Assembly: GCA_049318805.1 (NCBI GenBank)
Contig: JBMOFP010000001.1
Location: 61,247 to 125,246 of the forward strand
Direction of reading: 5' to 3'
From: Bradymonadia bacterium
GTDB lineage: Bacteria > Myxococcota_A > Bradymonadia > UBA7976 > UBA1532
DNA length: 64,000 nucleotides
Shown one piece after another: positions 33,371 through 60,204 of this stretch. Both the position numbers and the translations under genes were made by a program. A model generated the notes under the pieces. It saw only the letters and a list, made by a program, of their open reading frames with translations, was not told where the DNA came from and ran no database searches. Numbering within the stretch: the stretch's first letter is position 1; each line of letters starts with the position of its first letter.

Positions 33371-34012
33371 TTGACGCTCAGACCCATAGCCCTCGCTCTC
33401 CGCGCCGCGCTCGTGCTCGGCCTGGGCTGCGCGGACCCCACGCCCGTGGCGGCGCCGCCGCGCGCGCCCGAGTCGGTGCCCGCGCCCTCGGCCCCCCCGG
33501 TCGACGCCGGTCCCGCGCCCGTTTCGATGGCGCCGCTCGTGCTCGCCGGCGTCTCCATGATCGTCGACGCACCGCAAGGCGCCCGCGCGCTCGGCGGCGT
33601 CGGCCCGAGCGTCCGGGTCACCGGGCCGGACGGTGCTTGCGCCGCGAACGTGTCCCGCCAGGACGCGTCCGCCTACTTCCCGACCTTCGCCGCGACCGTG
33701 GAGACGATCGAGAAGGGCGTCCTGGGCACACGGCGGGAGTTCCTACAGAAGACCCAGCGGGCCGAGAGCGATTGGACGCTGCACTACTCGAAATCGGACC
33801 CGGTCGACGTCGACAAGCTGCTCTGGGCCGTAGACGTCCGGCGGCAGTTCGGGCAAACGCAGGTCTCGTGCACTCGGGTCGGCGCTGACGAGGCCGACGT
33901 GCGGTGCGCCCTGGCGGTGTGCTCCAGTCTGCGGCCGGTCGGTGGTGAACCGGCGACCGCACCCGAGGCAAAGCCGTCCCAGGCGCCGACTCTCAGCGTC
34001 CCTGAGCCTTGA
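33371..34012 (+). CDS. Hypothetical lipoprotein
   Basis: Lipobox GLGC and Pro-rich linker; TTG start assumed. Confidence 0.6.
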
Positions 34013-34056
34013 CCCGACCCGGGGCGCTTCGAATTCAGAACGAACGGAGTGAGCGA

Positions 34057-43000: not shown

Positions 43001-43486
43001 GCGCGCGACAGGCACCTCGCCTGCCTGCGGGCCCTCGGCGAAGCTGGGCGGCCCGCACTCCGGCGCGTCCGCGCGATAGACACCGTCGCCGCACCGTGCC
43101 TCGGCACAGGCGTTGGTGCAGCTGTCGTGGTCGTCGTGGTCGCCGTCGTCGCAGGCCTCGGGAGGGTCGATTCGACCGTTGCCGCACAAGGACCACACCG
43201 CGACCACCGCGCCGGGCGGCGGGAACGGCTCCGCGTCCGGGGCGGTGGCGTCCGCGGGCGTCGAGGCGTCCGGACTTCCGTCCCCTTGGGCGTCGGCGGG
43301 GACCGCGAGCGCGTCCGTCCGCGGTGACGCATCGAGCGGCGGCGCGGCGTCTTGCGCCGGCGGCCCCTGGTCGCGGCGCGCCGCGTCGTCGGCACCCGGA
43401 CCTCGGTCGGAGGTTTCATCGCCCGCACCGCAAGCGCCGAGCGCCAGCGCGCCCGCCAGACCGACGATGCGGGGCGACCCTCTCAA
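40061..43486 (-). CDS. GH81 endo-beta-1,3-glucanase lipoprotein with myxobacterial Cys-rich repeat and inserted CBM-like module
   Basis: Lipobox LGAC, CGNG..EACDDG repeat, PTNDWW, DTYWGGK, catalytic DQHFHYG and NQESSSEA, and GIQWLP. Confidence 0.9.
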   Translation of the reverse strand: MRGSPRIVGLAGALALGACGAGDETSDRGPGADDAARRDQGPPAQDAAPPLDASPRTDALAVPADAQGDGSPDASTPADATAPDAEPFPPPGAVVAVWSLCGNGRIDPPEACDDGDHDDHDSCTNACAEARCGDGVYRADAPECGPPSFAEGPQAGEVPVARTVAEGRIKVVEGTPGPYPTNDWWTQALVDAHSGELWAHPLVVRTEPDAVRLFQPLAWNEDGTAMRLESPLVLALDRPATPAADERLLADFEDGAFDGRADDGRLGWQALAGTAFGEGPAAGTLPGQSPVSGYRGNALLSSFHGGDPSQGRIRSTVFALDGDAVHLLMGGGNHPPEDPEGECTVSLWRVNDAGTPVERLGWRTGLNSEALAWQSIPIPENARGLDAVLELVDTHPRGWGHILLDEVLLGGADSAYAAPVSPRIAETQVARWGDWTVGLRWGTQVDVTLGHGLPFVWLEARDVTLRMPGLVNALEVRQFSRTWAFFDGPGVVRAADGPDTRITFPPEGSWVAVAAVPNGLTRADFEAAAPFVPRGSRLSWEHVPARGEVQTTWTLDLEALPGAVGEPTAMQGWLPHHLGMARGNFQTLDASYPTSRGPLRLARGTEFRLAFPFKGLAPFVPPPNAGAPDPRFNVERLTDYLTRQAAAGETPGDTYWGGKAMVVLARWLHAARQSAPEQAAPFVEQLSEVLADWLTFTPGETRRYFAQYPRWGALIGFDPAYGSEQFTDQHFHYGDFTTAGALLGLAQPEFLERFGRALRAVARSYGNADRDALDAPFLRTFDPWLGHSWAAGLGSPRGNNQESSSEAMQSWGGLFLLGEALEDSTLRATGAMGWAMERAATLTYWLGACAACPPVWPETYTHATVGILGAWGQAFATYFSADPGWIFGIQWLPVSPFLEYLGEEPAAGAARYGAMMADRADWLSTQGNAPNTYTQMGPDLANVVLGYLALIDPAGVLDTFEPLLAENSAVALDTATGGLTWYEAHARAAVGPRRFDLWSDCPTSAAYGEAPVWVFWNGAATDRLCTVFDERGPVERRYVPAQQALVSPTVVPVGPPDAFTTQPALDDGPISALTPALTFLRVSPVEDLAVALRGPGVVGLECARGDLDGRVVHCRFDGALEPGATYTLFAFGTRTDFETGL

Positions 43487-43495
43487 CTCAAGGGC

Positions 43496-45211
43496 TCACG
43501 GGCAGAGACCGCAGGACCCGTAGGTCTCTTGCAGGGCGGTGGGGCCCTCGATCTGCACGAGGCGGTTCGCGTAGTTCGCGTAGTCCGTCACCGGGGCGCA
43601 CTGACCGCCGGCCACCATGTCGTCGATCAGGTTTTCCTGATTGGCGAAGTTGTCGACCATGTACTTGTACTCGAGGGCACCGGCCGCAAACGGGAAGGTA
43701 CCCGTCCACAGGCCGTCTCCGTCTTCATCGGTCAGGTCGAAGCCGCGGTCGCAGAAGCCGCAGAACGGCCCGGTCACGTGCACGGTCTGGAAGGCCTCCA
43801 GGCCCGAGCACCCCATGTCGAGAGAGAACGTGACGTTGAAGAGACAGGAGCCGTCGTCGCGGTCCGCGGCGGCGTTGTAGTTCGTGGCGTCCGGGTTCGT
43901 GCAGCCGCCGACACCTGCCGGGGGCGCGCACACCGAGCACTCCCCGTAGAGCGCGTCGACCTGGGTCGGGCCGTCCACGATGACCTGCCGGTTGGCGTAC
44001 ACGGCGCCGTCGGTGATGGGCGCGCACGCCCCGTCGCCGGCGATGACGTTGTCGACCAGGTCCTCCTGGCTCGCGAAGTTGTCGACCATGAACTTGAACT
44101 CGACCGGGCCGTTCGGGAACTGGAACGTGCCCGCCCAGAGGCCGTCACCGTCCGGATCGGCGAGCGCGAAGCCCTGGTTACACCAGTTGCAGAACGGACC
44201 GGTGATGTAGGGCGTCGTGAACGCCTGGCCGCTGCAGGTCATGTTGACGGAGAAGGTCACCGGGTAGGTGCACGCTCCGTCGTCCTCGTTGGCTGCGGGG
44301 TTGTAGTTGCCGGCGGTCGGGTCGGTGCAGCCCCGAACCGGGAGCAAAGGCGGCGCGTCGGCGCGCCACTGCACGTCGTCCAGGTAGAACGTCACGGTCT
44401 CGGCGCCGCTCGGGTTGTCGACGAACCACGCGAAGCCGCCGACGATCTCCTCCACCGCGAGGTCGCCGAGCACGAGGGCCCACTCGGTCGCCTCGGCGGG
44501 CAGGTAGGTGTAGCCCGACGAGATGGAGAAGCCGTCCACGTCCTGGATGCCGACCGCGAAGTTCACGTGCTCCGTGCCCGTCGCGCCCCAGGCGTTGAAG
44601 CGCACGTGGGTGGCCCCGGGCTGCACGGGGAGGCCCGGCAAGTCGCCCCAGTTGTTGGCGGGGTACTGGAAGAAGAAGCCGACGAAGCCCGCGCCCGCGG
44701 GGGTCCAGGTGATGCGTCGGCAGGTGCCGCTCGGGTCGCCGGCCTCGACGTCGCAGTCTGCGACCTGGACGTCGCCGTCGCCCATCTTGCCGCTCATGAC
44801 GTAGTAGTCATCGATGAAAAACGGGAGCGCGGCCGGGAGGTCAGGGACCGGCGTGCCGCCGGGCTCGGGGGTGCCGCCGGGCTCGGGCGTGCCGCCGGGC
44901 TCGGGTGTGCCGCCGGGCTCGGGCGTGCCGCCGGGCTCGGGTGTGCCGCCGGGCTCGGGGGTGCCGCCGGGCTCGGGTGTGCCGCCGGGCTCGGGTGTGC
45001 CGCCGGGCTCGGGTGTGCCGCCGGGCTCGGGTGTGCCGCCCGGTTCAGGCGTACCGCCGACCGCCCCGTCGAGGCTGACGGAGCCTCCGGTGGTGCCGCC
45101 GGTGGGGTCATCGCCGCCCCCGTCGTCCTCACCACAGGCTCCGACGGCCAGCGCCAGGGCCGCGCATACGACCCGCTCGAAGACAAACTTGCCGCTTCGC
45201 TGCTTCATCAC
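43496..45211 (-). CDS. Multi-module putative glycan-binding lipoprotein
   Basis: Lipobox VGAC, (GGTPEP)n linker, one SG.MGD..QYP..NWG module, two GCT.P.A.NY..A..DDG.C units and two CBM48-like modules (VTFS..M..GPFC..D.DGDGLW.GT..E.K). Confidence 0.75.
   Translation of the reverse strand: MMKQRSGKFVFERVVCAALALAVGACGEDDGGGDDPTGGTTGGSVSLDGAVGGTPEPGGTPEPGGTPEPGGTPEPGGTPEPGGTPEPGGTPEPGGTPEPGGTPEPGGTPEPGGTPEPGGTPVPDLPAALPFFIDDYYVMSGKMGDGDVQVADCDVEAGDPSGTCRRITWTPAGAGFVGFFFQYPANNWGDLPGLPVQPGATHVRFNAWGATGTEHVNFAVGIQDVDGFSISSGYTYLPAEATEWALVLGDLAVEEIVGGFAWFVDNPSGAETVTFYLDDVQWRADAPPLLPVRGCTDPTAGNYNPAANEDDGACTYPVTFSVNMTCSGQAFTTPYITGPFCNWCNQGFALADPDGDGLWAGTFQFPNGPVEFKFMVDNFASQEDLVDNVIAGDGACAPITDGAVYANRQVIVDGPTQVDALYGECSVCAPPAGVGGCTNPDATNYNAAADRDDGSCLFNVTFSLDMGCSGLEAFQTVHVTGPFCGFCDRGFDLTDEDGDGLWTGTFPFAAGALEYKYMVDNFANQENLIDDMVAGGQCAPVTDYANYANRLVQIEGPTALQETYGSCGLCP
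44851..45059 (-). repeat. 18-bp tandem repeat encoding GGTPEP, about 11 units
   Basis: Near-perfect gtgccgccgggctcggg array. Confidence 0.95.
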
Positions 45212-45261: not shown

Positions 45262-45371
45262 GTTCGTCGGCCGGAACGTGTCAAGTCGGCGTCGAGGTTG
45301 TGACGCAGCGCGTCAAGGTGCGCACAGGGTGCGTCGATGAGACGTCGGCTTGACCGATGCCCTGTGGCGAA

Positions 45372-45396
45372 TTAGATTGTTCACGAACAGAACAAA
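45372..45396. promoter_or_regulatory. Putative ROK (XylR-type) operator 2
   Basis: TTAGATT-N11-GAACAAA, with the same 25-bp geometry, ending 10 bp before ATG 45407. Confidence 0.6.
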
Positions 45397-45406
45397 GTGG
45401 GGTGCC

Positions 45407-46765
45407 ATGCGAAACCATCAGCGTTGGGTCTCCAGCTGGATGTGGACGGGCCTTGGCCTCGCGGTTGTCGGATGCGGTGGAGACGCCGCTTCAGGCTCGG
45501 TCGCCTGCGGCGCCGGCACGGTGCGCTCCGGCGACCAGTGTGTCCCGGTCTCCCCGACCGACGACGCCGGCCCGGGCGGCGGCGAGCCGGGCGGCGGCGG
45601 CGAGCCGGGCGGCGGCGGCACACCGGGCGGCGGCGGCAACCCCCAGGGGGGCGGCGAGCCGGGTGGCGGCGGCGATCCCCAGGGCGGTGGTGATCCCCAG
45701 GGCGGCGGTGATCCCCCGGGCGGCGGCGACCCGGGCACAGGCGGCACCCCCGGCGGCGATGCCCTCCCGCTCACCCTCGACGACTTTTTCGCCCCCAGCG
45801 GCTTCATGGGGGACGGTGAGCAGCCGGGCGGCATCTCGGTCGTCGACTGCGTGCCCGAGGGCGACGCGGTGGGCGCATGCCGGGCCTTCACCTGGACCCC
45901 CGGTGCGATGGGCTGGGCCGGGGTCTGGTGGCAGTACCCGGAGGGCAACTGGGGCGGCCCCGATGGCTTGCCGGGCTTCGACATGCCGCCGGGCGCGGCC
46001 CAGGTCTCGTTCCTGGCGTGGGGCGAGCGCGGCGGCGAGGTCGTGAGCTTCGGTGTCGGCCTCGGCGACGTGGATGGTTTCTCCCGCAACCTGCCCGACG
46101 TCACCCTCGAGGCGACGCCCACGCGATACCGGATGGACCTCCGGGGCGTCGAGTACGAGGACATCGTCGGTGGCTTCTCGTGGGTCGCCGGCGGGTCCGC
46201 GGCCCCCGTGACGCTCTACGTGACGGACATCCATTGGACCGACAGCGTCGAAGGCCTCTCTGCGGAACCCATCGGGGACGCCCTGCCCTTGCCCGTGGTC
46301 GTGGACGACCACTGGTCGCCCTCCGGTTTCATGGGGGACGGCGAGCAGCCCGGCGGCATCGAGGTCGGTGAGTGCGACGAGCGCGGCGCCGCGGACGCAG
46401 CGGGTGTGTGCCGCCGCTTCCAGTGGAACCCGGGCCGGAACGGCTGGGCGGGCGTCTTCTGGCAGTACCCCGAGAGCAACTGGGGCGCGTTGCCCGGTCG
46501 CGCCATCGCCCCGGGCGCGACGGAGGTGAGCTTCCTCGCGTGGGGCGAGCTCGGCGGTGAGGTCGTGAGCTTCGGGGCGGGCATGGGTGACGTGGACGGC
46601 TTCAACGCCGCGCTGCCGCAGGTCGTCCTCGAGGCCACGCCGACGCCCTACACGATCTCGCTCGCCGGTCAGACCTACGACGAGGTCGTCGGCGCCTTCA
46701 CGTGGACCGCGAACGAATCCGCCGCGCCCGTGGCCTTCTACATCGACGACCTCCGCTGGCGATGA
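45407..46765 (+). CDS. Lipoprotein with two tandem uncharacterised Trp-rich (CBM-like) modules
   Basis: Lipobox VVGC, Gly/Pro repeat linker and a duplicated PSGFMGDGEQPGGI..GWAGV.WQYPE.NWG..VSFLAWGE.GGEVVSFG module. Confidence 0.8.
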   Translation: MRNHQRWVSSWMWTGLGLAVVGCGGDAASGSVACGAGTVRSGDQCVPVSPTDDAGPGGGEPGGGGEPGGGGTPGGGGNPQGGGEPGGGGDPQGGGDPQGGGDPPGGGDPGTGGTPGGDALPLTLDDFFAPSGFMGDGEQPGGISVVDCVPEGDAVGACRAFTWTPGAMGWAGVWWQYPEGNWGGPDGLPGFDMPPGAAQVSFLAWGERGGEVVSFGVGLGDVDGFSRNLPDVTLEATPTRYRMDLRGVEYEDIVGGFSWVAGGSAAPVTLYVTDIHWTDSVEGLSAEPIGDALPLPVVVDDHWSPSGFMGDGEQPGGIEVGECDERGAADAAGVCRRFQWNPGRNGWAGVFWQYPESNWGALPGRAIAPGATEVSFLAWGELGGEVVSFGAGMGDVDGFNAALPQVVLEATPTPYTISLAGQTYDEVVGAFTWTANESAAPVAFYIDDLRWR

Positions 46766-48018
46766 ACGACTCGCCTCAGTTCGCGGCGTTCCGGCAGTCC
46801 CCCGTGGACGTGACCGGCATGCGCTCGCGCAATCGGACCTTCGTGCTGCAGCTTCTGTGGCGCGCCCGGGAGCTCTCGCGCGCCGAGCTCTCGCGGCGCA
46901 CGGGCATGAGCCGGTCCTCGGTTTCGTCGTTGGTGAGCGAGCTGCTCGACGCCGGCCTTGTCGAGGAGACGGGCACCGGCGAATCGAGCGGCGGCCGACG
47001 ACCGATTCTGCTGCGATTCCGCGATGATGCGTGTCTCATCGCCGGACTCGACATGGGCGCGACGCACATCGCCTGTGCCTTGACGGACCTGCGCGGGAAC
47101 GTGGTCGCTTGGCGCCAGACGGCTTTCGACGCCCGTTCGAATCCGCTGGGCGCTCTCGACGAGTGCGAGGCGCTGGTGGACGCCTGCCTGGACGCGCGCG
47201 GCCTACGGCGGTCTGCCCTCGCGGGCCTCGGGCTGGCCGTCCCGAGCCCCGTGGACCCGCGCGCGCCGGGGCGCCTGGCACCGATGATCCTGCCCGCCTG
47301 GACCGGGTTGGACGTCCATGAAGCGCTGAAGGACCGCTTTGTTCTGCCGGTCGTGATCGACAACGACGCCAACCTCGGTGCGCTGGCGGAGCGTTGGTGG
47401 GGCGCCGGCCGCGGTGGGGACGACCTCGTTTTCATCAAGCTCGGCACGGGTGTGGGTGCGGGCTTCATCCTCAACGGCGAGGTGTACCGCGGGGCCTACG
47501 GCATCGCCGGGGAGCTCAGTCACCTGAGCCTGGGGCCCCAGGGTCCTCCGTGCGCGTGCGGTCAGCGGGGGTGCCTCGTACGGCTCATCGGCGCGCGTGC
47601 GCTGCACGACCGTGCGCTCCAGCGTTTGTCGCACCATCCCGAAACGGTCCTCCGGCGGGACGGACTCACCGTCGATGCCCTGGTGCGCGCCGCCCACGCG
47701 GGGGACCCGCTCGCGCTCGAGCTGACCCGCGAGCTCTCGAGAGACCTCGGGAGCGGGATCATTGGCCTGTTGAATTTGATGAGCCCGGCGATCGTGGTGA
47801 TCGGCGGGCAGCTCTCGCTTCTGGGTGATCTGCTGCTCGAACCTCTGCGAACCCACGTGCGCCAGCGAACGCTCTGGCCCAACCTGGGGGAGACGCCCAT
47901 CGTCGTCAGCGCGCTCGGTCAGCGCGCGATCGCGCTGGGCGCGGCGACGGCCTTCCTCGCCGAGGTCCTGAAGAACCCTGAGCTCCTCCCCTTTGCGTCG
48001 AGGTGGGCACCCCCATGA
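46762..48018 (+). CDS. ROK-family transcriptional repressor (XylR/NagC type)
   Basis: N-terminal HTH (SRAELSRRTGMSRSSVS), GGRRP, DNDANLGALAE, GTGVGAG and GELSH..CACGQRGCL; ATGA overlap. Confidence 0.93.
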   Translation: MNDSPQFAAFRQSPVDVTGMRSRNRTFVLQLLWRARELSRAELSRRTGMSRSSVSSLVSELLDAGLVEETGTGESSGGRRPILLRFRDDACLIAGLDMGATHIACALTDLRGNVVAWRQTAFDARSNPLGALDECEALVDACLDARGLRRSALAGLGLAVPSPVDPRAPGRLAPMILPAWTGLDVHEALKDRFVLPVVIDNDANLGALAERWWGAGRGGDDLVFIKLGTGVGAGFILNGEVYRGAYGIAGELSHLSLGPQGPPCACGQRGCLVRLIGARALHDRALQRLSHHPETVLRRDGLTVDALVRAAHAGDPLALELTRELSRDLGSGIIGLLNLMSPAIVVIGGQLSLLGDLLLEPLRTHVRQRTLWPNLGETPIVVSALGQRAIALGAATAFLAEVLKNPELLPFASRWAPP

Positions 48019-48887
48019 CCAAGAGAGATTGGGCCGTGGGCGTCGGCGTGAGCGCCGCGCTCCTTGCCTGTGGTGGACCGGATTCGGCGGGTCGGATCGA
48101 GGGAGACGAGCCCGCCAGTGTGCCGCCTCCCGCGGACGACGGCTCTCGCCCAGGCTGGCGTCTGGTCTGGCAGGACGAGTTCGATGGCCCCGCGGGCACA
48201 GCGCCGGATGCCGCACGCTGGACCCCCGAGGTCGGCGGTGACGGCTGGGGCAACGAGCAGCTCGAGCACAATACCGACCGCACCGACAACGCCGCGCTCG
48301 ATGGCGACGGCCGGCTCGCAATCACCGCCCGACGCGAGTCGTATCGGGGCAACACCTATACCTCGGCGCGCCTGTCGACGCGCGCCAAGTTCGAGAAGAC
48401 CTACGGGCGCTTCGAGGCGCGGGCGCGCATGCCCATCGGGCAGGGCATGTGGCCGGCGTTCTGGCTGCTGGGGGGCGACATCGGCGAGGTCGGCTGGCCC
48501 GCGTGCGGGGAAATCGACATCCTCGAGTACAAGGGCCAGGCGCCCTCGATCGTTTACGGCACGGTCCACGGCCCCGGCTACAGCGGCGCCTCGGGGGTCG
48601 GCAAGGAGCAGCCGATCTCCCGCACCGACCTCAGCGAGGACTTCCACATCTACGCGGTCGAGTGGACCCCGGACCGGATTCGTTGGTTCGTGGACAGCTT
48701 CATGTTCCACGAGCTCACCCCCGACGACCTGCCCCCGGGCACACGGTGGGTCTTCGACCACGACCACTTCATCATCCTGAACCTCGCCGTGGGCGGGCGT
48801 TTCGTCGGCCCGCTCGGCCCCGACGTCGTTTTCCCGCAATCCCTGCTCGTCGACTACGTCCGGGTCTACGAGAAGACTGAACAGTAA
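48015..48887 (+). CDS. GH16 laminarinase-type endo-beta-1,3-glucanase lipoprotein
   Basis: Lipobox LLAC, WQDEFDG, GWGNEQ, YTSARL, WPAFWLLG, catalytic EIDILE and LNLAVGG. Confidence 0.93.
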   Translation: MTKRDWAVGVGVSAALLACGGPDSAGRIEGDEPASVPPPADDGSRPGWRLVWQDEFDGPAGTAPDAARWTPEVGGDGWGNEQLEHNTDRTDNAALDGDGRLAITARRESYRGNTYTSARLSTRAKFEKTYGRFEARARMPIGQGMWPAFWLLGGDIGEVGWPACGEIDILEYKGQAPSIVYGTVHGPGYSGASGVGKEQPISRTDLSEDFHIYAVEWTPDRIRWFVDSFMFHELTPDDLPPGTRWVFDHDHFIILNLAVGGRFVGPLGPDVVFPQSLLVDYVRVYEKTEQ

Positions 48888-48942
48888 AGCGTCCATCGGG
48901 CCCCCGATGGCCCGCTCACCCTCGCTCAGGAGAGCCATCTTG

Positions 48943-50304
48943 ATGCTACGCCGTTTCCCCGACGGGTTCCTCTTCGGCGCCGCCACCTCGTCCTACCAGA
49001 TCGAGGGCAGCACCGAGGTGGACGGGCGAGGGCCTTCCATCTGGGACACCTTCTGCGCCCAGCCCGGGCGGATCAAAGACGCGACGAACGGCGCGCGCGC
49101 GTGTGAGCACTACACCCGCATGCCCGAGGACGTCGCGTTGATGGCCGAGCTCGGCCTGAAGGCATACCGGTTTTCGGTGGCCTGGCCGCGGATTCTACCG
49201 GAGGGCCGCGGGCGCGTGGAGCCGCGCGGACTCGCGTTCTACGACCGGCTCGTCGACGCGCTCCTCGAACGGGGCATTCAGCCCTGGTGCACATTGTACC
49301 ACTGGGACCTGCCCGACGTGCTGGAGCGGGCGGGCGGCTGGCCCGAGCGCCCGATCTGCGACGCCTTCGTGGAGTACACCGACGTCGTCACGCGGCGGCT
49401 CGGCGACCGGGTCAAGCACTGGATCACCCACAACGAGCCGTGGTGCATCGCCATGCTCGGCTACATGACCGGAGAGCAGGCGCCGGGCTATACCGACTGG
49501 CCGAAGGCCCTGCGCGCCGTGCACCACGTGCTGCTCTCTCACGGGATGGCCGTGCCCGTGGTGCGCGCGAACAGCCCCGGCGCGCAGGTCGGTATCGTCG
49601 TCAACCTGTGCCCGGCCGAGCCGGCCTCTCCGAGTGACGCGGACGCCGACGAGACCCGCGCCTTCGACGGCTTTTTCAACCGCTACTATCTCGACCCGGT
49701 CTACGGGCGCGGCTACCCGAAGGACGTGCTCGAGGACTACGTGCGCAAGGGTCACATCCCGTCGACGACCCTCGACTGCGTGCGCGAAGGCGACCTCGAG
49801 ACCATGTCGGTCAAGACGGACTTCCTGGGCATCAACTACTACTCCCGGGCCGTGATCCGGAGCGACCGGGTGCCCGAGAGCGAGAACGCGCCGCGCACGG
49901 TCTTCCAGAGCGACGACAAGACGGACATGGACTGGGAGGTGGCTCCCGGGAGCCTCACGAAGGTCCTCGAGCGGGTGCACCGCGACTACGCGCCGCCGGC
50001 GTTGTACGTGACCGAGAACGGCTGCGCCTACGCCACCGCCCCGGACGCGGAGGGTCGAGTTCTCGACACCCAGCGCGTGTCCTACTTCATGAGTCACATC
50101 TCCGCGTGCCACGACGCGATCGAACGCGGCGTGCCGCTGAAGGGCTACTTCGCGTGGTCGCTCTTGGACAACTTCGAATGGGCCTGGGGCTACGAGAAAC
50201 GATTCGGGCTGGTCTGGGTCGACTACGAGACGCAGCAGCGTGTGCCGAAAGCCAGCGCATGGCTCTACCGCCGCATCATCGCCCAGCACGGGGTCGAGGC
50301 GTGA
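48943..50304 (+). CDS. GH1 beta-glucosidase (cytoplasmic)
   Basis: ATSSYQIEG, YRFSVAWPR, TLYHWDLP, acid/base NEP, nucleophile TENG and WSLLDNFEW; no signal peptide. Confidence 0.96.
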   Translation: MLRRFPDGFLFGAATSSYQIEGSTEVDGRGPSIWDTFCAQPGRIKDATNGARACEHYTRMPEDVALMAELGLKAYRFSVAWPRILPEGRGRVEPRGLAFYDRLVDALLERGIQPWCTLYHWDLPDVLERAGGWPERPICDAFVEYTDVVTRRLGDRVKHWITHNEPWCIAMLGYMTGEQAPGYTDWPKALRAVHHVLLSHGMAVPVVRANSPGAQVGIVVNLCPAEPASPSDADADETRAFDGFFNRYYLDPVYGRGYPKDVLEDYVRKGHIPSTTLDCVREGDLETMSVKTDFLGINYYSRAVIRSDRVPESENAPRTVFQSDDKTDMDWEVAPGSLTKVLERVHRDYAPPALYVTENGCAYATAPDAEGRVLDTQRVSYFMSHISACHDAIERGVPLKGYFAWSLLDNFEWAWGYEKRFGLVWVDYETQQRVPKASAWLYRRIIAQHGVEA

Positions 50305-53300
50305 GCGCCGCGCCGTCGCGTTTGCTCGGCGTAGGCTTGCTGCTCGGCGCGCAGCTCGCGTCGGCCCAGGAGGCGCCGCCGCCGGCCTCCGAGGCGCCTC
50401 CGCCGGCCTCCGAGGCGCCGCCGCCGGCCACCGAGGCGCCGCCGCCGGCCACCGAGGCGCCGCCGCCACCCGTGGTCCAAAGTGAACCACCCGCCCGCGA
50501 CCCGCGCGCGCCGGACGAGGTCCGCGTGCACAAGGACGACGCAGGCTGGCAACTGCGCGTGAACGGCCGGCCCTTCATGGTCTTCGGCATGAACTACGAC
50601 TACATGCCGGTCGGCGAGAACTACGCCTACGACTTCTGGGGCAAACCCCGGGAGTTCATCCGCGAGGCCCTGGACCGCGACATGTCGCTGTTGCGCGACA
50701 TGCATGTGAACGCGATCCGGCAGTACGCCGACATCCCGCCGGAGTGGGTCACCTACATCTACGAGACCTACGGCATCTTCACGATCATCAACCACACCGT
50801 CGGTCGCTACGGTCTCTCCGTGGGCGGCGCGTGGCAGCCGAACACCGACTACGCCGACCCCGAGACACGCCGCCAGCTCAAGGCGGAGCTCGCGGGGGTC
50901 GTCTCGCGGTACCGAGACACACGCGGCGTGCTGATGTGGATGCTCGGCAACGAGAACAACTACGGCCTGCACTGGACCTCTTTCGAGATCGAGAATCTGC
51001 CGACCGCGCAGCACGACATCGCGCGGGCCACGCCGCTCTACTCGCTCTTTGGCGAGATCATCGACGAGATCCACGCGCAGGACCCGCATCGCCGCCCCGT
51101 CTCCATCGCGAACGGCGACCTCGGCTACATCGACCTCATCGCCCAGCACTGCAAGAACCTGGACATCATGGGGTCGAACGTCTACCGCGGCATCTCGGCG
51201 GGGGACCTCTACGCCGTGGTGAAGGCGAAGCTCGGGGTGCCCGTGATGTACACGGAGTTCGGCTCCGACGCGTACAACGCGCGCGACATGCGTGAGGACC
51301 CGGTCATGCAGGCCCACTACCTGCGCGGGCAGTGGCAGGAGATCTACGAGCAGTCCGCCGGGAAGGGCCGCGAGGGCAACGCCATCGGCGGCATGATCTT
51401 CCAATGGTCCGACGGGTGGTGGAAGCACCTGCAGAACGAGCGCCTCGACATTCAGGACACGACCGCGAGCTGGGCGAACGGCGGCTACCCGCTGGACTTC
51501 GTCGAGGGCGGCAACAACATGAACGAGGAGTGGTTCGGCATCACGGCGAAGGACCGGACGGACTCGCGCGGTCACTACATCGTCCGACCGCGCGCGGCGT
51601 ACTACCTGCTCCAGGAGGCCTTCCGACTCGACCCGTACGCGCCGACCACGGACCAGGCGGCCATCCGGGCCCACTTCGGCAAGCTCTCGCCCCAGAACTT
51701 CCTCGCGCCCTACACCGCGGACCGCGGCGACGCGCGCTTGGACGAACTCGAGAAGCTGAGGGTGAGCCAGCTTCGGTTCGAGCTCGAGACCTACACGACC
51801 GCCGGCTCCAAACAGACGGAGCGCGGGACCGACGCGGTCTTCGACCACATGGAGTCGATGTACGTCGGCGTCGCCGCGCGCCCCAGCGACCAGGTCGAAG
51901 CCGAGCTCGTGCTCAATGTGCTCGGCAACGTGCCCACGAACCGACTGGACGACATCTTCTACGAGAACCGAGGGGAACGCCGCACGCTGCTCGACGAAGA
52001 CGGACAGCCCGTCGAACTCGAGGGCGGCGAGCGGGTCGCCATCTACAGCGCCGAGTTCCGCGTCGAGGACCCCTGGTTCTCCGCCCACGGCTTCTACCGG
52101 GTCGGGCACACCCACTGGGGCTACGAGGGTGACTTCTTCGGCCTGTACCCCGAGGCGTTCTACGGGGAGAACATCGACCAGTACAACGGCAAGGCGCCGC
52201 TGGGCGTCGAGGTGACCGGCAAGCAGGGGCTCGAGGGCTTCAAGCTCGCTTTCGGCCCCGAGCTCTACTGGGGCGCGAACCCCGCAGTGATCGTCAAGTA
52301 TCGACGGAACGTCGGGGGGGCGACCCTGACCGCGGTGCACCAGGAGGACATCGCCAAGAAGGGTCGAACGGAGTCCACGGTGGCCGTGCCCGAGCGTCGG
52401 ACCCGGCGCAGCACGCTGCACGGGGAGCTCATCCGCGGGGGCCTGAAGCTGGAGCTCGGCGGGATCTTCGCGGGCTCGGAGCGGGTCGGGATGGACTTCC
52501 AGTGGACCCGGGACAGCGATGGCCGGGGCTACCTCGACAGCGGCTACGACGTGCTCGCCGACGAGGTCGTCTGGGCCGACACGCTGGGCGGCAAGGCGAA
52601 GGTCAGCCTCACGGTCGGGCAGTTCAACTGGTACGCCCAGGGGGCGTATCGGGGCCTCGTGGCCGACGGTGGCCCGGACCAAACGCTGACGTTCGCCGGC
52701 TGGGGGCTGAAGGAGAGCGGCCGCGGCAATCAATGGAACACCTTGACCGGCGTGCTGGTGCATTTTGCACCGTTCCAGGTCGGCGTGAACGCGCAGTACC
52801 AGCGGCCGCTCGTTGGACCCATGCCGGCCGTGGGCGACCACATGAGCGACGCGACGGGCATCTACTACCCGTCACTCACGCCTCGCAATTTCCGGGACGA
52901 CCCGTTCGCGGTTCTCGACAACCGGGAGCAGGCCGCGGCCGAGCTCCTGCTCGTGTACGACCCCACGCCGGGCACCTGGTTCTGGGCCTGGGACAACGAC
53001 GACCGCGAGGACGCACGCTTCGCGGCGTCTCTGGACTCGGTTTACCGCAAGCGTTTCACACGGCGGGACTCCGTCTTCTACGTGAGCGAAAGCGGGCAGT
53101 TCCAACCCTTCGGCGCCTCGCCGCCGCAGCAGGACACCTGGGATGTCATCGGGCGCATCGTCTCTCGACCCGGTGGTGCATGGCGCATCATCGGCCACCT
53201 GCACGCGGGGCAGGGGGAGGCCAGCGGCGCCGAGAGTCGAGGGGCGCTGCGGATGAGCGAGCGCCTCGCCGTGCAGTGGAACGGCTGGCGTGTCTCCCAG

Positions 53301-53555
53301 ACCGTGAAGATCGACGACTGGGGCCCCTATGACTTCCATCGCGACTTCGACCTGACCTATCCGTTGCAGGTCTATGGCGACCTGTCCTGGGGCGTGCGCT
53401 CGGGCCTGCTGAACGGAGACCTCGTCCGCTTCGGCGTCCGGGGCCAGTACCGCACGCTGGACGAGAACAGCACGGGCTTTGCCGTCGAGACGCCCGCCCC
53501 GGGTGCCGCGGCGAACGAGTGGGAGTTCGGTACCTACATGCACGTGGGGCTCTGA
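50301..53555 (+). CDS. Secreted clan GH-A (GH2-like TIM barrel) glycosidase fused to a probable outer-membrane beta-barrel
   Basis: Signal peptide and EAPPPA linker; NAIRQY, GNENNYG and TEFG motifs; about 600 C-terminal aa of amphipathic strands ending WEFGTYMHVGL. GTGA overlap with GH1. Confidence 0.75.
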   Translation: MSAAPSRLLGVGLLLGAQLASAQEAPPPASEAPPPASEAPPPATEAPPPATEAPPPPVVQSEPPARDPRAPDEVRVHKDDAGWQLRVNGRPFMVFGMNYDYMPVGENYAYDFWGKPREFIREALDRDMSLLRDMHVNAIRQYADIPPEWVTYIYETYGIFTIINHTVGRYGLSVGGAWQPNTDYADPETRRQLKAELAGVVSRYRDTRGVLMWMLGNENNYGLHWTSFEIENLPTAQHDIARATPLYSLFGEIIDEIHAQDPHRRPVSIANGDLGYIDLIAQHCKNLDIMGSNVYRGISAGDLYAVVKAKLGVPVMYTEFGSDAYNARDMREDPVMQAHYLRGQWQEIYEQSAGKGREGNAIGGMIFQWSDGWWKHLQNERLDIQDTTASWANGGYPLDFVEGGNNMNEEWFGITAKDRTDSRGHYIVRPRAAYYLLQEAFRLDPYAPTTDQAAIRAHFGKLSPQNFLAPYTADRGDARLDELEKLRVSQLRFELETYTTAGSKQTERGTDAVFDHMESMYVGVAARPSDQVEAELVLNVLGNVPTNRLDDIFYENRGERRTLLDEDGQPVELEGGERVAIYSAEFRVEDPWFSAHGFYRVGHTHWGYEGDFFGLYPEAFYGENIDQYNGKAPLGVEVTGKQGLEGFKLAFGPELYWGANPAVIVKYRRNVGGATLTAVHQEDIAKKGRTESTVAVPERRTRRSTLHGELIRGGLKLELGGIFAGSERVGMDFQWTRDSDGRGYLDSGYDVLADEVVWADTLGGKAKVSLTVGQFNWYAQGAYRGLVADGGPDQTLTFAGWGLKESGRGNQWNTLTGVLVHFAPFQVGVNAQYQRPLVGPMPAVGDHMSDATGIYYPSLTPRNFRDDPFAVLDNREQAAAELLLVYDPTPGTWFWAWDNDDREDARFAASLDSVYRKRFTRRDSVFYVSESGQFQPFGASPPQQDTWDVIGRIVSRPGGAWRIIGHLHAGQGEASGAESRGALRMSERLAVQWNGWRVSQTVKIDDWGPYDFHRDFDLTYPLQVYGDLSWGVRSGLLNGDLVRFGVRGQYRTLDENSTGFAVETPAPGAAANEWEFGTYMHVGL
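50370..50471 (+). repeat. 21-bp tandem repeat encoding EAPPPA[ST], about 5 units
   Basis: Repeated gaggcgccgccgccggcc units. Confidence 0.9.
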
Positions 53556-53558
53556 CCG

Positions 53559-54152
53559 ATGCGGAACAACCTTCGAGTCTGTCTTTTCACGGCCGTGGTC
53601 GCCTCGAGCTGCGCCGAGCCCGCCGAGTTCGTGTACGGCGAGCGGGTCACCGACCTCGTCTTCGAGCTGTGCGACCCGACCATGGGTGTGCATCCGAGCC
53701 GCACGGTGCTCGCGTGCCCGGCGAACCCCTTCCTGGGCGGGGTGGGGGCCGAGACCAAGTGGAGGATCCAGACGGCCGGAGGGCCCGTGGCGGCGTTCTA
53801 CGCGTGGGCCACGATCCTCGCGAGCGAGGCCACGGGCGAGCACCAGTACTATGCCGCCACGAACCTGAAGGAGATCTTCCAGGGGGCCGAGGCCGACCAG
53901 GAGGACCTCGAGCGTGTGCGTGAGATGGCCATCGCGGGCTTCCAATCCGTGCTCGACAACTTCCCCGAGTCGAACTCTTTCGACGCGACCGGCACCGTGG
54001 CGTTTCGCCTCGCGACGCCGGCCTACCGGGGCATCGTGGAGCTCGGCGGGCGACCGGCGGGCGGTTGGGTGATCGTCGCCACGGCAGACGCCGGCGAACA
54101 GGCCGTGCGCATCGGGCAGGACGTGCCCGTATTCGAGGAGGAGACGCCATGA
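53559..54152 (+). CDS. Hypothetical lipoprotein of the glucan locus
   Basis: Lipobox ASSC, helical core; starts 3 bp after the barrel gene. Confidence 0.7.
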   Translation: MRNNLRVCLFTAVVASSCAEPAEFVYGERVTDLVFELCDPTMGVHPSRTVLACPANPFLGGVGAETKWRIQTAGGPVAAFYAWATILASEATGEHQYYAATNLKEIFQGAEADQEDLERVREMAIAGFQSVLDNFPESNSFDATGTVAFRLATPAYRGIVELGGRPAGGWVIVATADAGEQAVRIGQDVPVFEEETP

Positions 54153-54838
54153 AGCGCGCGCGACTGCACACTCACTTCGGCCTCCTCGCGCTCCTCGTCG
54201 GCTTCGGCTGCCGACCCGACCCCGGCGCCGAGGACTACGCGAGCCAGGAGGCGTTCCGCTTCGACGCGGGTGATCCGCGCCCCGAGGCCTACGTCGAAGG
54301 GCCGGACCCCTGGCGCGAAGGCGAGCCGCGCTTCGGGCTCGGGCTGTTCTACGAGGACGGCCGTACCGAAGAGGTCGTCATCGACGACGTCGCCGCACAC
54401 TTCTACATCTACGAGAATACGTTCACCGTGGTGGCTGCGGACAATGGGCAGCGAGAGGGCCTGTCGGTCGACCAGATCGTCCACGCGGGCACGCCGTGGT
54501 GGGGCGGGGGCGTTCACCTCGAGGCACCGCGAGACCTTTCGGCGTGGAAGACCCTGCACGTCTCGCTTCGGTCGTCAGATGGTGCGTTTCGCACCGTTTC
54601 CCTCGGCATGACGAGTGGCGCCGAGGGCAGCCCGGACAACGCCTCGGCGAGCGTCGACGCGACCGAGTACGGCTACGAGAACGACGGCCGCTGGCACGAC
54701 CTGAAGATCCCGATCGCGGACCTCGTCGCGAAGGGGCTCGACCCCGCGGCGGTGACGGTCGTGCTGCTGCTCGGCGGCGGCAGCGGGACCACGGCGGAGT
54801 CGCTGGCGATCGACGCGCTGTACCTGACTCAGGACTGA
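54149..54838 (+). CDS. Lipoprotein with galactose-binding-like/CBM module
   Basis: Lipobox GFGC; WWGGG..PRDLSAWKTLHVSL, DGRWHDLKIPIADL..GLD and IDALY pattern typical of CBM11/CIA30-like jelly rolls; ATGA overlap. Confidence 0.7.
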   Translation: MKRARLHTHFGLLALLVGFGCRPDPGAEDYASQEAFRFDAGDPRPEAYVEGPDPWREGEPRFGLGLFYEDGRTEEVVIDDVAAHFYIYENTFTVVAADNGQREGLSVDQIVHAGTPWWGGGVHLEAPRDLSAWKTLHVSLRSSDGAFRTVSLGMTSGAEGSPDNASASVDATEYGYENDGRWHDLKIPIADLVAKGLDPAAVTVVLLLGGGSGTTAESLAIDALYLTQD

Positions 54839-57109: not shown

Positions 57110-57376
57110 CTACTTGAGCTGACTGTCTTTGCTGCCGCGCCGATTGTAGAGCCCGTGGGCGCGCGCCTCGGCGTCGTTCGCTGATTGGCACGGCACGCAC
57201 CGGCGCACGCCGGGGACCGCCCGGCGTCGGGCCTCGGGAATCGGTGCTTCGCAGTCCTCGCACAGCGCCAGGCTGGGGCCGCGCGCGAGGCGGCTCCGCG
57301 CGCGGGCGACCTCGCTCTCGACCGTGGCGTCGACCTGCTCCTGAACCGCGCCGTCCGGCGCCCAACCCGAGGCCAT
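57110..57376 (-). CDS. ybiI: DksA/TraR C4 zinc-finger protein, YbiI type
   Basis: MASGWAPDGAVQEQVD, CEDCEAPIPEARRRAVPGVRRCVPCQ and NRRGSKDSQLK motifs. Confidence 0.93.
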   Translation of the reverse strand: MASGWAPDGAVQEQVDATVESEVARARSRLARGPSLALCEDCEAPIPEARRRAVPGVRRCVPCQSANDAEARAHGLYNRRGSKDSQLK

Positions 57377-57480
57377 GCGACTCTCCTGCGAGGGGGGCGC
57401 ACAGCATAGCGCGGTCCGGCGGTCGCGGCGCGGTGAAGGCCGTGCTTGTCCACGGGGGCGCGTGTCGCCATGCTTCGCGC

Positions 57481-60204
57481 ATGCGGATTCGAAAGCCCTC
57501 CTCGATGCTCGTCGGCGTGTCCGGACTCTTTGGGGTCGCCCTCGCGGCGTGCGGGGACGACGGCGGCGCGTCGTCGCCGACGCCGGACGCGGCGCGCCCG
57601 TCGGACGCGGCGCGCCCGTCGGATACGACACGGCCCGACGCGACGCCCCCGGTCCGCGAGGATGCGGCGCTTCCGTCTCCCGACACGATGCCGCCGCCCG
57701 ATCCGTGTGCGGCGCTGGCCGCCGAGACGACGGTGGGCGGATGGCGCGTCGTCATCGACGGCGCGACGTGGTCCGTCACACCGCCCGGGGCGTCCGCGCC
57801 CGTGCTGAGCGGGCCGACGGGCTGCGTCGTCGGCGATCCGGCGGTCGAGAGCGCGACCGGTGCGCCGGACGTCGAGTCGAACTACGGCGCGTTCAAGATC
57901 AAGCTCGAGGGTGTGGGGAGCGAGATGGTGTGGCGCGCGGCGAGTGGCCCGCGCCTCGAGGTGCGCGAAGGCGAGGGCGTGCGGCTCGTCGCGGAGGGCG
58001 GCGAGGTGTTGCGGTTCGAGGCCGATCCGGCGCGGCCCGACCATCTCTGGCTGCGCGCCGAGGCGGCCGCGGAGCCCGACACGAACACACCCCCGACCGG
58101 CGTCGGCCTTCGCGTGGCTTGCGCGCCGGGCGAGGCGTTCTTTGGCCTGGGCACGCAGGCGGTGGACCTCGACCTGCGGGGACGCGCCTATCCGCTGTGG
58201 ACGCAAGAGCAAGGCATCGGCAAGCCCGAGGGCGGCCTGGGTTTCCCGTTGCGCAACGTGCCCGAGGCGGCCTACGCACCCATGGGCGTGTGGCACGCGC
58301 TGCGCCTCGAGGACGGCGCGCCCGTAGGGTACGGCGCGATCGTCGAGCGCGACGAGTTCGCGGAGTTGGACCTGTGCAAGGCCGAGGCGACGCGTGTGCG
58401 GCTTCGGACCGTGCACCCGACGGCGGGCTTGCTGCTCGTGCCCGGCGACACACCGCGGGCGCGCCTGACCGCCGTGACGGCCGTGGTCGGCCGCTTGCCC
58501 GACGCGCCCCCCGACTGGGTCTTCGCCCCCTGGAACGACTCGGTCGGCGGTCCGGTGCGCCTGCGTGAGGTCGCCGAGACGCTCCGACGCGAGGGCGTAC
58601 CGTCGTCGGCCCTCTGGGCAGAGGACTGGATCGGCGGCGAGGACGCCGGCTTCGGCTACCGACTCTCGTATGCCTGGGCCTGGGACCCGACCCGTTACCC
58701 CGACCTCGCGGGGGACGTCGCCTGGCTGCACGCGAACGGCTTCGCTTTCCTGGCCTACTTCAACCCCTTCGTGCCCGAGACCACGGCGATGTTCGCCGAG
58801 GGGGTCGAGGGCGACTTCCTCATCAAGGACACGGACGGCGAGCTCGTCACGTTCTTCGACCCCGCTTTTCGCAACACCTCGCTCGTCGATCTGTCTCATC
58901 CCCCCGCGGTCGATTGGCTCAGGGGTTACCTCGAGCGCGCGGCCGCGCCCGTCGAGGCCGGGGGCCTCGACATCGACGGCTGGATGGCGGACTTCGCCGA
59001 GTGGCTGCCGGTTCAGACGCTGCTCCGCAGCGGGGAGACGGGCTGGGCAGCCCACAACCGCTATCCCTTGATGTGGCAGTCCATCAACCGCGACGCGTTG
59101 GCGAGCGCCCGTGGGGCGGGCCGGTGGGTCTACTTCGCGCGGTCCGGCTGGGCCTCGACCCAGGGGGGAACGAGCGGACTGGCACCGACCGTGTGGGGCG
59201 GTGACCAGAACACCGACTGGGGCTACGACGACGGCCTCCCGACCGTCGTGCCCATCGGGGCCCACGTGGGCCTCGGCGGGGTGTCGATCTTCGGCAGCGA
59301 CGTGGGCGGATACACCTCGGTCATGATCCCGCCGACCACGAAGTCCCTCTTCTTCCGATGGACCGGACTCGCGGCGTTCACGCCCCTCATGCGTACGCAC
59401 CATGGCTCGACCGAATGCCGAAACTGGAGCTTCGACCGCGACCCCGAGACGCTGGCGCACTATCGGCGCTACGCGAGCATTCACACCCGTCTGTTCCCCT
59501 ACCTGCGGGACTTGTTGGCGGATGCCCTCGCGTCGGGGTGGCCATTGATGCGCCACCCGGCGTTGGTGGAGCCGGCCGCGCCGAACCTGTGGGCGCCGGG
59601 CGAGCGTGCGTTCTTCCTGGGGGATGACCTCTTTGTTTCGCCCGTGGTCGACGAAGGGGCCGAGGACTGGCCCGTGACGTTGCCGCCGGGCGCGTGGTGG
59701 CCGCTCCTGGGCGGGGCCGTGGTGCAAGGGGGCGTAGACGTCGTTCGGGCGGCCCCGCTCACCGAGGTGCCGGTCTTCGTGCGCGCGGGCACCGCCCTCC
59801 CCCTGCTCACGGACACACCCGTCACTCTGTACCCGCTCGCGGACGACGCCGAGGCGGGCCTCCAGGGGCTGGAGGCCGCGCGACTCCGAATCACCATCGC
59901 GCTCTACCCCGAGGCCGACGGCCGCGTGCGCCCCCAGCGCCTGCGGGGGCTCTACGGGGCCGACGACGCGGGCCCCGAGGTGCACGCCGAGGGCCTACCG
60001 GAGACCGGCGAGGCTGTGGTCGTCGGCCCGGGCGAGGCCGCGCTCGGCGCGTCCGGCAGGGTCTTCGTGCGCGGGGGCCCCGTCGACGTCACCTACACCT
60101 TCGTGGTCGGCGGGGCGGCCTGGGGCGAGCTGCGGGCGTCGACGCCCGTGGGCGACCCGAACCCCGACATCCCGCCGCCCTGCGAGGTGGGCCGCGAAGA
60201 CTGA
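57481..60204 (+). CDS. GH31 alpha-glycosidase lipoprotein, YihQ-like
   Basis: Lipobox LAAC, WTQEQGIG, nucleophile GWMADFAE, HNRYP, acid/base WGGDQ, SDVGGY and PLMRTH. Confidence 0.88.
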   Translation: MRIRKPSSMLVGVSGLFGVALAACGDDGGASSPTPDAARPSDAARPSDTTRPDATPPVREDAALPSPDTMPPPDPCAALAAETTVGGWRVVIDGATWSVTPPGASAPVLSGPTGCVVGDPAVESATGAPDVESNYGAFKIKLEGVGSEMVWRAASGPRLEVREGEGVRLVAEGGEVLRFEADPARPDHLWLRAEAAAEPDTNTPPTGVGLRVACAPGEAFFGLGTQAVDLDLRGRAYPLWTQEQGIGKPEGGLGFPLRNVPEAAYAPMGVWHALRLEDGAPVGYGAIVERDEFAELDLCKAEATRVRLRTVHPTAGLLLVPGDTPRARLTAVTAVVGRLPDAPPDWVFAPWNDSVGGPVRLREVAETLRREGVPSSALWAEDWIGGEDAGFGYRLSYAWAWDPTRYPDLAGDVAWLHANGFAFLAYFNPFVPETTAMFAEGVEGDFLIKDTDGELVTFFDPAFRNTSLVDLSHPPAVDWLRGYLERAAAPVEAGGLDIDGWMADFAEWLPVQTLLRSGETGWAAHNRYPLMWQSINRDALASARGAGRWVYFARSGWASTQGGTSGLAPTVWGGDQNTDWGYDDGLPTVVPIGAHVGLGGVSIFGSDVGGYTSVMIPPTTKSLFFRWTGLAAFTPLMRTHHGSTECRNWSFDRDPETLAHYRRYASIHTRLFPYLRDLLADALASGWPLMRHPALVEPAAPNLWAPGERAFFLGDDLFVSPVVDEGAEDWPVTLPPGAWWPLLGGAVVQGGVDVVRAAPLTEVPVFVRAGTALPLLTDTPVTLYPLADDAEAGLQGLEAARLRITIALYPEADGRVRPQRLRGLYGADDAGPEVHAEGLPETGEAVVVGPGEAALGASGRVFVRGGPVDVTYTFVVGGAAWGELRASTPVGDPNPDIPPPCEVGRED

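Follow-up and report, generated by a model that had tools for sequence, protein, structure and literature searches.

Our analysis of a 64,000-nucleotide stretch of DNA from a Bradymonadia bacterium (NCBI GenBank assembly GCA_049318805.1, contig JBMOFP010000001.1; hereafter the window) revealed a gene at 50301-53555 (+) whose product of 1084 amino acids (aa) joins an N-terminal glycoside hydrolase (GH) domain to a C-terminal region predicted to form an outer-membrane beta-barrel, and which is followed directly by a gene for a small lipoprotein. The domain content, the conservation of the catalytic residues, the barrel-type fold prediction, the gene pair and the content of the locus were all obtained by computation, and the support for this anatomy at the level of prediction is strong. 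The gene pair is a candidate for a widespread, undescribed gateway for algal and fungal beta-1,3-glucans. We lean slightly towards reading it as an outer-membrane channel that works independently of TonB and passes beta-1,3-gluco-oligosaccharides, with a trimming glucanase on the periplasmic side and a lipoprotein partner. An earlier note, made from the sequence of the window, had suggested a porin carrying a periplasmic hydrolase, by whose action import would become directional; this stands as the best reading of our results, in the form of a functional proposal.

The C-terminal region, residues ~480-1084, is predicted to be a membrane-type beta-barrel and not a series of soluble beta-sandwiches. 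An AlphaFold2 (AF2) model of residues 480-1084, for which a 35-sequence alignment was used, reached a predicted local distance difference test score (pLDDT) of 88.6 and a predicted template modelling score (pTM) of 0.84, and DSSP assigned to it 26 long antiparallel strands laid out as hairpins. On one side of the barrel 9 of the 12 turns have 2-4 residues, and the loops of the opposite side are up to 41 residues long; this alternation of short turns and long loops is the classical pattern of outer-membrane proteins, and both ends of the barrel would therefore lie on the short-turn, periplasmic side. Foldseek returned at least 451 matches to the barrel model at E<=0.001, and all of those listed were outer-membrane barrels, including BtuB, PfeA, MOMP, MtrB, LptD (chains 5iv9, 4n4r and 8h1s), AlgE and Occ. 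VIA-align was run against 48,161 representatives and then on the top 997 of Foldseek, and all 50 listed matches in both searches were membrane barrels. The best scores went to the ushers PapC (Z 15.5, spanning residues 1-605) and FimD (Z 14.6) and to AlgE (Z 14.8-15.0). Lower scores were those of MtrB (Z 11.9), the porins ChiP, CymA and OprB (Z 10.4-11.8) and TonB-dependent transporters (Z 10-11), and the matches also took in PelB and a polysaccharide secretin. The predicted barrel (residues 486-1083; 51756-53549, +) would place the protein in the outer membrane.

The strands of the barrel have one hydrophobic or aromatic face and one polar face (a dyad pattern), and the protein ends in WEFGTYMHVGL, which resembles a beta-signal. 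Among full-length homologues from Gammaproteobacteria, Cloacimonadota and Geobacter, 57 of 63 end in phenylalanine. It is extremely improbable that the C-terminal region is instead a soluble beta-rich module with a carbohydrate-binding or structural role, for which the barrel prediction would be misleading. Searches of Pfam, NCBIfam and PDB sequences gave no match covering residues 480-1084, which leaves room for this explanation, as does the fact that the case for the barrel is wholly predicted; the high confidence of the model, its uniform up-down hairpins with alternating short and long connections, the membrane barrels found at each listed structural match, the dyad pattern of hydrophobic residues and the terminal aromatic beta-signal of distant homologues all speak for a membrane barrel, as the earlier note had supposed.

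The barrel belongs to no described family. A match to DUF6882 (E 0.01) was below the cut-off and was dismissed. The only named family among the neighbours of the barrel by language-model score in the ESM Atlas was DUF6029, whose clusters it resembles at 0.94, which is a lead; the window protein itself gave no match to DUF6029 (PF19494) at E<=1. Elsewhere in the same genome, on another contig, one locus (L111, G000:C29:866-1060) has a short match, above the cut-off, to the C-terminal end of DUF6029, with 29.1 bits and E 1.4e-6. No Plug or TonB-dependent-receptor Pfam domain (PF07715, PF00593) was found in the window protein at E<=1, in agreement with the earlier note, and a TonB box was not recognised, although no search was aimed at that motif.

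The laminarinase families GH158 and GH157 are closest to the catalytic domain, which is either a remote member or a neighbour of them. It occupies residues ~74-445 (50520-51635, +; the earlier note had placed it at 50515-51640) and was assigned to the clan GH-A (beta/alpha)8 fold from Pfam, PDB sequence matches and Foldseek. The predicted acid/base E218 (codon 50952-50954, +) lies in the motif GNENN (residues 216-220) and the predicted nucleophile E319 (codon 51255-51257, +) in TEFG (residues 318-321). Both align with the catalytic pair of clan GH-A in BuGH158, that is, the acid/base of its NE motif (GNE) and the nucleophile Glu of TEWG, and N217, E218 and E319 are invariant in all 203 aligned family members, which is in keeping with the intact hydrolase described before. 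Pfam gave only a weak match of the GH domain to the GH2 TIM barrel (PF02836, E 2.5e-5). The top match among PDB sequences was GH158(Pro) (9oro, E 1.2e-6), and with a family profile of 35 members BuGH158 (6pal) was found at E 3.7e-7. This profile match brings the GNE and TE(F/W)G motifs into register, and GH2 beta-galactosidases scored close behind (8e-6). With the full-length model, Foldseek placed GH158(Pro) first (9oro, E 9.2e-14, TM 0.53 on the target), followed by the GH157 enzyme LaGH157 (9g5g) and then BuGH158 (6pal); all three are beta-1,3-glucanases, and the alignments to these GH158/GH157 structures have ~12-18% identity.

The family shares with these enzymes the clan GH-A fold, the aligned NE and TE motifs and a setting in beta-1,3-glucan loci, and differs from them as follows. 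An insertion at residues ~371-411 (WWK...NNMNEEWFG; 51411-51533, +) is specific to the window family; it has invariant columns (W373, W374, K375, N406, N408, E409, E410 and W411) and low model confidence (pLDDT 52-61 in blocks of 371-410), and the alignment to BuGH158 stops just short of it. In addition, the C-terminal Ig-like domain that packs against the TIM barrel in the two solved GH158 members was not seen here, where the model has helices after residue ~445 and then the barrel of ~600 aa. According to PMC13195107, GH158(Pro) is a processive beta-1,3-glucanase with laminaribiose as its product, has Glu143/Glu229 as its catalytic pair and carries an Ig-like second domain, and PMC12175321, on Woeseiaceae, lists GH158 among laminarin polysaccharide utilisation loci; its tables may contain the gene described here. 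In view of the sequence and fold matches and of the missing Ig-like domain, we describe the enzyme only as GH158/GH157-like, clan GH-A, with no fixed family. Beta-1,3-glucanase activity would be expected from its relatives and from the content of the locus.

The gene of the partner lipoprotein (53559-54152, +; 197 aa, lipobox Cys18) starts 3 nt past the stop of the GH-barrel gene. Aligned lipoproteins have a signal peptide that ends in the lipobox cysteine, with Cys18 invariant in 32 of 32. Scored with a lipoprotein profile, a homologue was present on the same strand, at most about 110 nt downstream, in 66 of the 73 related loci (from L001-L080) that have at least 700 nt of downstream sequence, and directly downstream in 20 of 21 loci of the same phylum, our own locus counted. 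Even in distant bacteria these homologues sit directly 3' of the fused gene. This near-constant neighbour makes the unit a two-gene module, and the idea of a one-protein system put forward in the earlier note has to be revised. The lipoprotein matches no Pfam family and has no SusD Pfam match; in the ESM Atlas it resembles small TPR/YfiO-like proteins at 0.86-0.88, which is below the level at which the tool gives more than a lead.

The lipoprotein may bind the barrel. A complex prediction of the barrel with the mature lipoprotein scored 0.59, and the highest-scoring of three controls 0.00. In calibration, 116 of 157 solved complexes passed the mark, as did 2 of 215 mismatched pairs; only 18 of the 157 solved complexes passed with a score of 0.60 or less, yet both of the passing mismatches did so. 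The runs agreed in at least 93% of contacts, and the pLDDT of the partner was at least 82.

Homologues of the fused protein are widespread. Of 8,000 candidates scored against the full-length protein, 4,641 were homologues at E<=0.001, with ~50% identity over 93-100% of its length; with the barrel alone as the query, 415 clusters (50% identity) were matched. Among the sources named are Myxococcota, Polyangiaceae, Bradymonadia, Krumholzibacteria and Archangium; the gammaproteobacterial Leucothrix, Thiomicrorhabdus, Thioalkalivibrio, Woeseiaceae and Hahella; Cloacimonadota, Geobacter, Geomonas, Gemmatimonadota and Nitrospinota; and, among Bacteroidota, Flavobacterium, Lutibacter, Flavobacteriaceae, Saprospiraceae and Ekhidna. 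The flavobacterial names fit the similar proteins that the earlier note had mentioned from that group. In the phylum of the window, 24 of 201 sampled genomes had a match, with 21 loci near full length. In existing annotation the GH part mostly appears, wrongly, as 'beta-galactosidase' or 'GH2 TIM barrel', and the barrel and the lipoprotein are unannotated.

Genes with the barrel only were found in four of 80 loci (L001, L002, L006 and L007); in the remaining loci the GH part was in frame, cut by a contig end, or split into 2-3 frames. The barrel-only proteins have their own signal peptides, end in Y-x-F and keep the conserved loops, and in an alignment of fused and barrel-only proteins no region was consistently lost along with the GH domain. 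In L001 the barrel-only gene belongs to a locus of the composition LacI-GH1-GH16-GH16/CBM4_9, which ties the barrel to beta-glucan use even where there is no fused enzyme. The lengths in the representative search had suggested many more stand-alone barrels; these were rejected, being mostly fragments or miscalled starts of fused genes. Two such proteins, P0179 and P0252, start inside the GH motif NEEWFG, and the shorter matches are mostly labelled partial.

These barrel-only genes also bear on the idea that the barrel is a mere translocator or anchor, which would display or release the glucanase in the manner of an autotransporter and have no role as a channel. The order of signal peptide, passenger-like domain, helix and C-terminal barrel resembles type Va secretion, following the general T5SS layout given in PMC13162877. 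The barrel-only homologues retain all conserved loops in beta-glucan loci, where a translocator with no passenger would be purposeless, and this argues against a simple autotransporter. Type V barrels have 12-16 strands, and ~26 were counted here. Moreover, no autotransporter Pfam family matched the window protein at E<=1, the best full-span structural matches were the usher barrels PapC and FimD, and the barrel has a dedicated and conserved lipoprotein partner. We therefore consider this explanation highly improbable, and the autotransporter-like alternative offered in the earlier note is weakened by the strand count and by the barrel-only homologues in the same kind of locus.

Two further variants were observed among the homologues. 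In L007 (7965-11380; also in L006) a barrel-only homologue of 567 aa is followed by a protein of 566 aa that has an N-terminal part homologous to the lipoprotein and extra sequence, with type II secretion system genes (secretin, GspE, GspF) upstream and an SBP_bac_5 ABC system downstream. P0097 (1351 aa) has an extra N-terminal region of ~300 aa that begins much like the GH domain, and is possibly a tandem GH protein.

The genes around the fused gene are consistent with the beta-glucan or laminarin setting that had been proposed for it. The operon runs in the order ROK regulator, GH16, GH1, GH-barrel, lipoprotein, with the genes tightly packed or overlapping. It includes a ROK-family regulator with an N-terminal winged helix (46702-48018, +; PF00480, E 2.4e-56, with MarR_2/HTH matches), a GH16 glucanase (48003-48887, +; PF00722, E 3e-24) and a GH1 beta-glucosidase (48907-50304, +; PF00232, E 6.9e-156). 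A neighbouring divergent unit carries a GH81 endo-beta-1,3-glucanase of 1141 aa (40061-43486, -; PF17652, E 1.4e-30; PDB 6fop, E 1.3e-50). Related loci had similar surroundings. A census of 13 loci, with 83 open reading frames (ORFs) scanned, found GH16 in eight, GH30 in six, MFS_2 sugar transporters in five, GH1 in three and GH17 in two, together with CBM4_9 proteins and LacI/GntR regulators, and the further related loci that were scanned had a similar beta-glucan content. In L014 the gene of ~1,150 aa after the lipoprotein encodes a GH149 beta-1,3-oligosaccharide phosphorylase (6hq6, E 0), and copies 44-54% identical to it were found in L018, L009 and L064.

The window ORFs scanned included no TonB-dependent receptor, and no match to a TonB-dependent-receptor family was found in the 83 ORFs of the 13 loci or in the other related loci scanned. 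The barrel is the sole outer-membrane component found in the scanned loci and, judged by gene content, seems to take the place of the outer-membrane transporter. This content also bears on whether the pair could be an export or remodelling machine for a beta-glucan of the cell itself, with polymer moving outward as in the AlgE, BcsC, PgaA and PelB porins. AlgE is among the best structural matches, PelB and the polysaccharide secretin were also matched, and exopolysaccharide systems often include a periplasmic glycoside hydrolase. Among the ORFs scanned in the window and in related loci, however, no glycosyltransferase or synthase was seen, and the neighbours are catabolic, namely GH1, GH16, GH30, GH17, GH81 and GH149 enzymes, MFS importers and LacI/GntR/ROK regulators. 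We regard export as quite improbable.

Other genes were observed next to the lipoprotein gene in related loci. In L032 (10474-13818; also in L067 and L070, of Geomonas/Geobacter type) the following gene of ~1,110 aa is related to GH149 only distantly (E 1e-9 to 1e-19) and may belong to another phosphorylase family, GH161- or GH94-like. In several gammaproteobacterial loci an ORF of ~400-600 aa with a GH domain and no barrel lies just past the lipoprotein gene (L047, 10551-12335; L052, 10600-12384; L080, 10696-11907; similar ones in L011, L063 and L068); these ORFs cover positions ~158-346 of the family profile and have a GH2_C Pfam match.

In the mechanism that we propose for import, the GH-barrel protein would be exported by Sec, with cleavage of its signal peptide, and its C-terminal ~600 residues would be inserted in the outer membrane as a barrel of ~26 strands, whose long, conserved and aromatic-rich loops may line or constrict a glycan channel. 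The GH158-like retaining glucanase would hang on the periplasmic side, attached by a short helical linker just before strand 1, and the lipoprotein could bind the barrel as a plug, a gate or a glycan-binding cap. Outside the cell, secreted GH16 and GH81 enzymes would cut laminarin or fungal glucan; the oligosaccharides would enter via the barrel without TonB, and the tethered glucanase would shorten them at the periplasmic exit, so that the gradient stays inward. The short products might then cross the inner membrane by a carrier, such as the MFS proteins of related loci, and be finished in the cytoplasm by GH1 or, in other lineages, by the GH149 phosphorylase. We infer the membrane location, the channel function, the substrate, the role of the lipoprotein and the periplasmic position of the GH domain, the last of these because of strand parity, the autonomy of the barrel and the analogy with other barrels that have N-terminal domains: those of LptD, ushers, BamA and TonB-dependent transporters are periplasmic or inside the lumen.

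Several points weigh against this import mechanism. A pore of 26 strands would need plugging, and the DSSP string and the fold matches are the basis for how many strands the barrel has, whether it closes and where the GH domain lies. The arrangement of the domains is uncertain, since the full-length AF2 model had a pTM of only 0.61. Of 121 close relatives of the window protein, 74 end in L, 20 in M and 20 in I, in place of F. The lipoprotein was not found in seven of the 73 loci (L001, L002, L003, L008, L012, L016 and L018) or in one of the 21 from the same phylum (L101), and the complex prediction lends weak support to its binding of the barrel. Among the window ORFs scanned there was no inner-membrane sugar transporter. 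Finally, the helical linker ahead of strand 1 (residues 452-483, ~32 residues; 51654-51749, +; DSSP helices at 452-460, 464-467 and 469-483 in the full-length AF2 model) is autotransporter-like, and at least one homologue, P0219 (1218 aa), has a CBM4_9 domain N-terminal to its GH-barrel part, a domain more usual for surface or secreted enzymes; both would fit a GH domain exposed at the cell surface.

Such a surface-exposed enzyme is the main rival explanation, although we consider it unlikely. The barrel would still import, with the GH domain, and perhaps the lipoprotein, at the outer mouth of the channel, where bound glucan would be cut and the products passed into the pore, an arrangement like that of SusG and SusD with SusC. 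The close structural match BuGH158, which its PDB title calls an endo-laminarinase from a beta(1,3)-glucan utilisation locus, is an enzyme that we take to be a surface lipoprotein. Many relatives have long Pro/Ser/Thr-rich N-terminal extensions, typical of exposed enzymes, and the long loops predicted to be extracellular are unusually conserved, as if docking a partner. This position would, however, require a TIM barrel of ~400 aa to be exported through or beside the barrel, and we know of no such export route for a 26-strand barrel. The other proteins with an N-terminal domain and a barrel that were named above hold that domain in the periplasm or the lumen, the barrel-only homologues keep the conserved loops even where they lack a GH domain, and the loci already have secreted GH16 and carbohydrate-binding-module enzymes.

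A more specific form of the periplasmic arrangement is possible but doubtful, in which the barrel would be a thread-and-cut importer. A beta-1,3-glucan chain would be bound at the cell surface, for which the conserved aromatic loops or the lipoprotein might serve, then threaded through the barrel and cleaved processively by the GH158-like domain at the periplasmic exit. If this were true, hydrolysis would act as a ratchet, making passive outer-membrane transport directional with no energy from the inner membrane, and the pair would represent a new and widespread class of glycan translocon, a counterpart of SusCD outside Bacteroidota that is also present in Bacteroidota.

In its layout the pair resembles LptD-LptE, in its locus role SusCD, and in concept an inner-membrane MFS-GH17 fusion of Formosa. 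LptD-LptE consists of a 26-strand barrel with a periplasmic N-terminal domain and a lipoprotein plug of ~20 kDa, and the window pair likewise has a barrel of ~26 predicted strands, an N-terminal non-barrel domain and a co-encoded small lipoprotein. Here, in contrast, the N-terminal domain is an enzyme and the proposed cargo would be glycan moving inward, whereas that of LptDE is LPS moving outward; no sequence relation to LptD or LptE turned up, although no search was aimed at either. As with SusC and SusD, a barrel and a lipoprotein are encoded beside GHs and a regulator, and TonB-dependent barrels are among the structural matches. The window pair differs in having no Plug or TonB-dependent-receptor domain, a lipoprotein of about 175-200 aa that has no SusD Pfam match, a GH fused to the barrel, and ~26 predicted strands in place of the 22 of SusC. 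Sugar-specific porins (LamB, ScrY, ChiP, CymA and OprB) are also TonB-independent barrels in glycan catabolic loci, and have 14-18 strands; they have neither a fused enzyme nor a dedicated lipoprotein, and no sequence similarity to them was detected. The homologue listings contained no match named GluM or Corallococcus, as judged by name only. In the fusion from Formosa laminarin loci, FbGH17b, a laminarin-active hydrolase is joined to a membrane transporter, and a coupling of cleavage and uptake was proposed (PMC6246565). That protein pairs an alpha-helical MFS transporter of the inner membrane with GH17, whereas the window has an outer-membrane-type barrel, a GH158-like enzyme and a lipoprotein.

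No description of a fusion between a GH and an outer-membrane barrel, or of its lipoprotein, was found in the literature searched, with subscription journals and supplements outside it. In the sea, laminarin and other beta-1,3-glucans account for some of the largest carbon fluxes; such glucans are the main polymer of fungal walls, and fungi are prey of myxobacteria; the passage of glycans across the outer membrane outside the SusCD/TonB paradigm is poorly understood. The gene pair, which is common and highly conserved, offers a testable model of hydrolysis-coupled passage through the outer membrane, as well as a new metagenomic marker of beta-glucan use.

The remaining features of the GH-barrel gene concern its start and the N-terminal end of its product. 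The reading frame is open over its whole length, with no stops, and its GTG start shares the bases GTGA with the TGA stop of the upstream GH1 gene; the purine-rich stretch GGGGTCGAGG ends immediately 5' of this start. Residues 1-22 (50301-50366, +), read from the sequence by eye, resemble a Sec-type signal peptide that ends at LASA|QE, and comparable signal peptides were present at the start of all homologues. The signal peptide is followed by a lineage-specific, low-complexity extension (residues 23-72; 50367-50516, +) of Pro-rich repeats (APPPASE/APPPATE), and residues 1-63 were disordered in the full-length AF2 model (pLDDT <50). Counted together with the signal peptide, the part ahead of the GH core has a median length of 43 residues among 203 homologues; the longest has 338, and the shortest, of 9, belongs to an ORF cut at a contig end. 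The extension had been described as a Pro-rich tether; it is a free N-terminal segment of variable length that precedes the GH domain and does not lie between domains.

Other genes of the window were less clearly placed. Between the GH81 and ROK genes, one gene of unknown family (43496-45211, -) has a weak match of the glycogen-binding CBM type (AMPK1_CBM, E 9.5e-7) and another (45350-46765, +) has no Pfam match; both probably belong to the same glucan cluster. The last 88 nt of the lipoprotein gene are also part of an ORF of 257 aa with high GC at third codon positions (GC3), at 54065-54838 (+). The sole family signal of this ORF is a weak match to Exop_C (galactose-binding-like; E 5.4e-4, below the cut-off), and it may encode another glycan-binding protein of the operon and have its true start farther downstream. 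Downstream of the cluster, a GH31 alpha-glycosidase of 986 aa is encoded at 57244-60204 (+). On the other side of the cluster, a Ser/Thr protein kinase domain is joined, in a protein of 886 aa (36686-39346, -), to an FGE-sulfatase (formylglycine-generating-enzyme-like) domain at the C-terminus, and a protein of 881 aa (34009-36654, +) contains six thrombospondin type 3 repeats (PF02412, E 2.1e-50).

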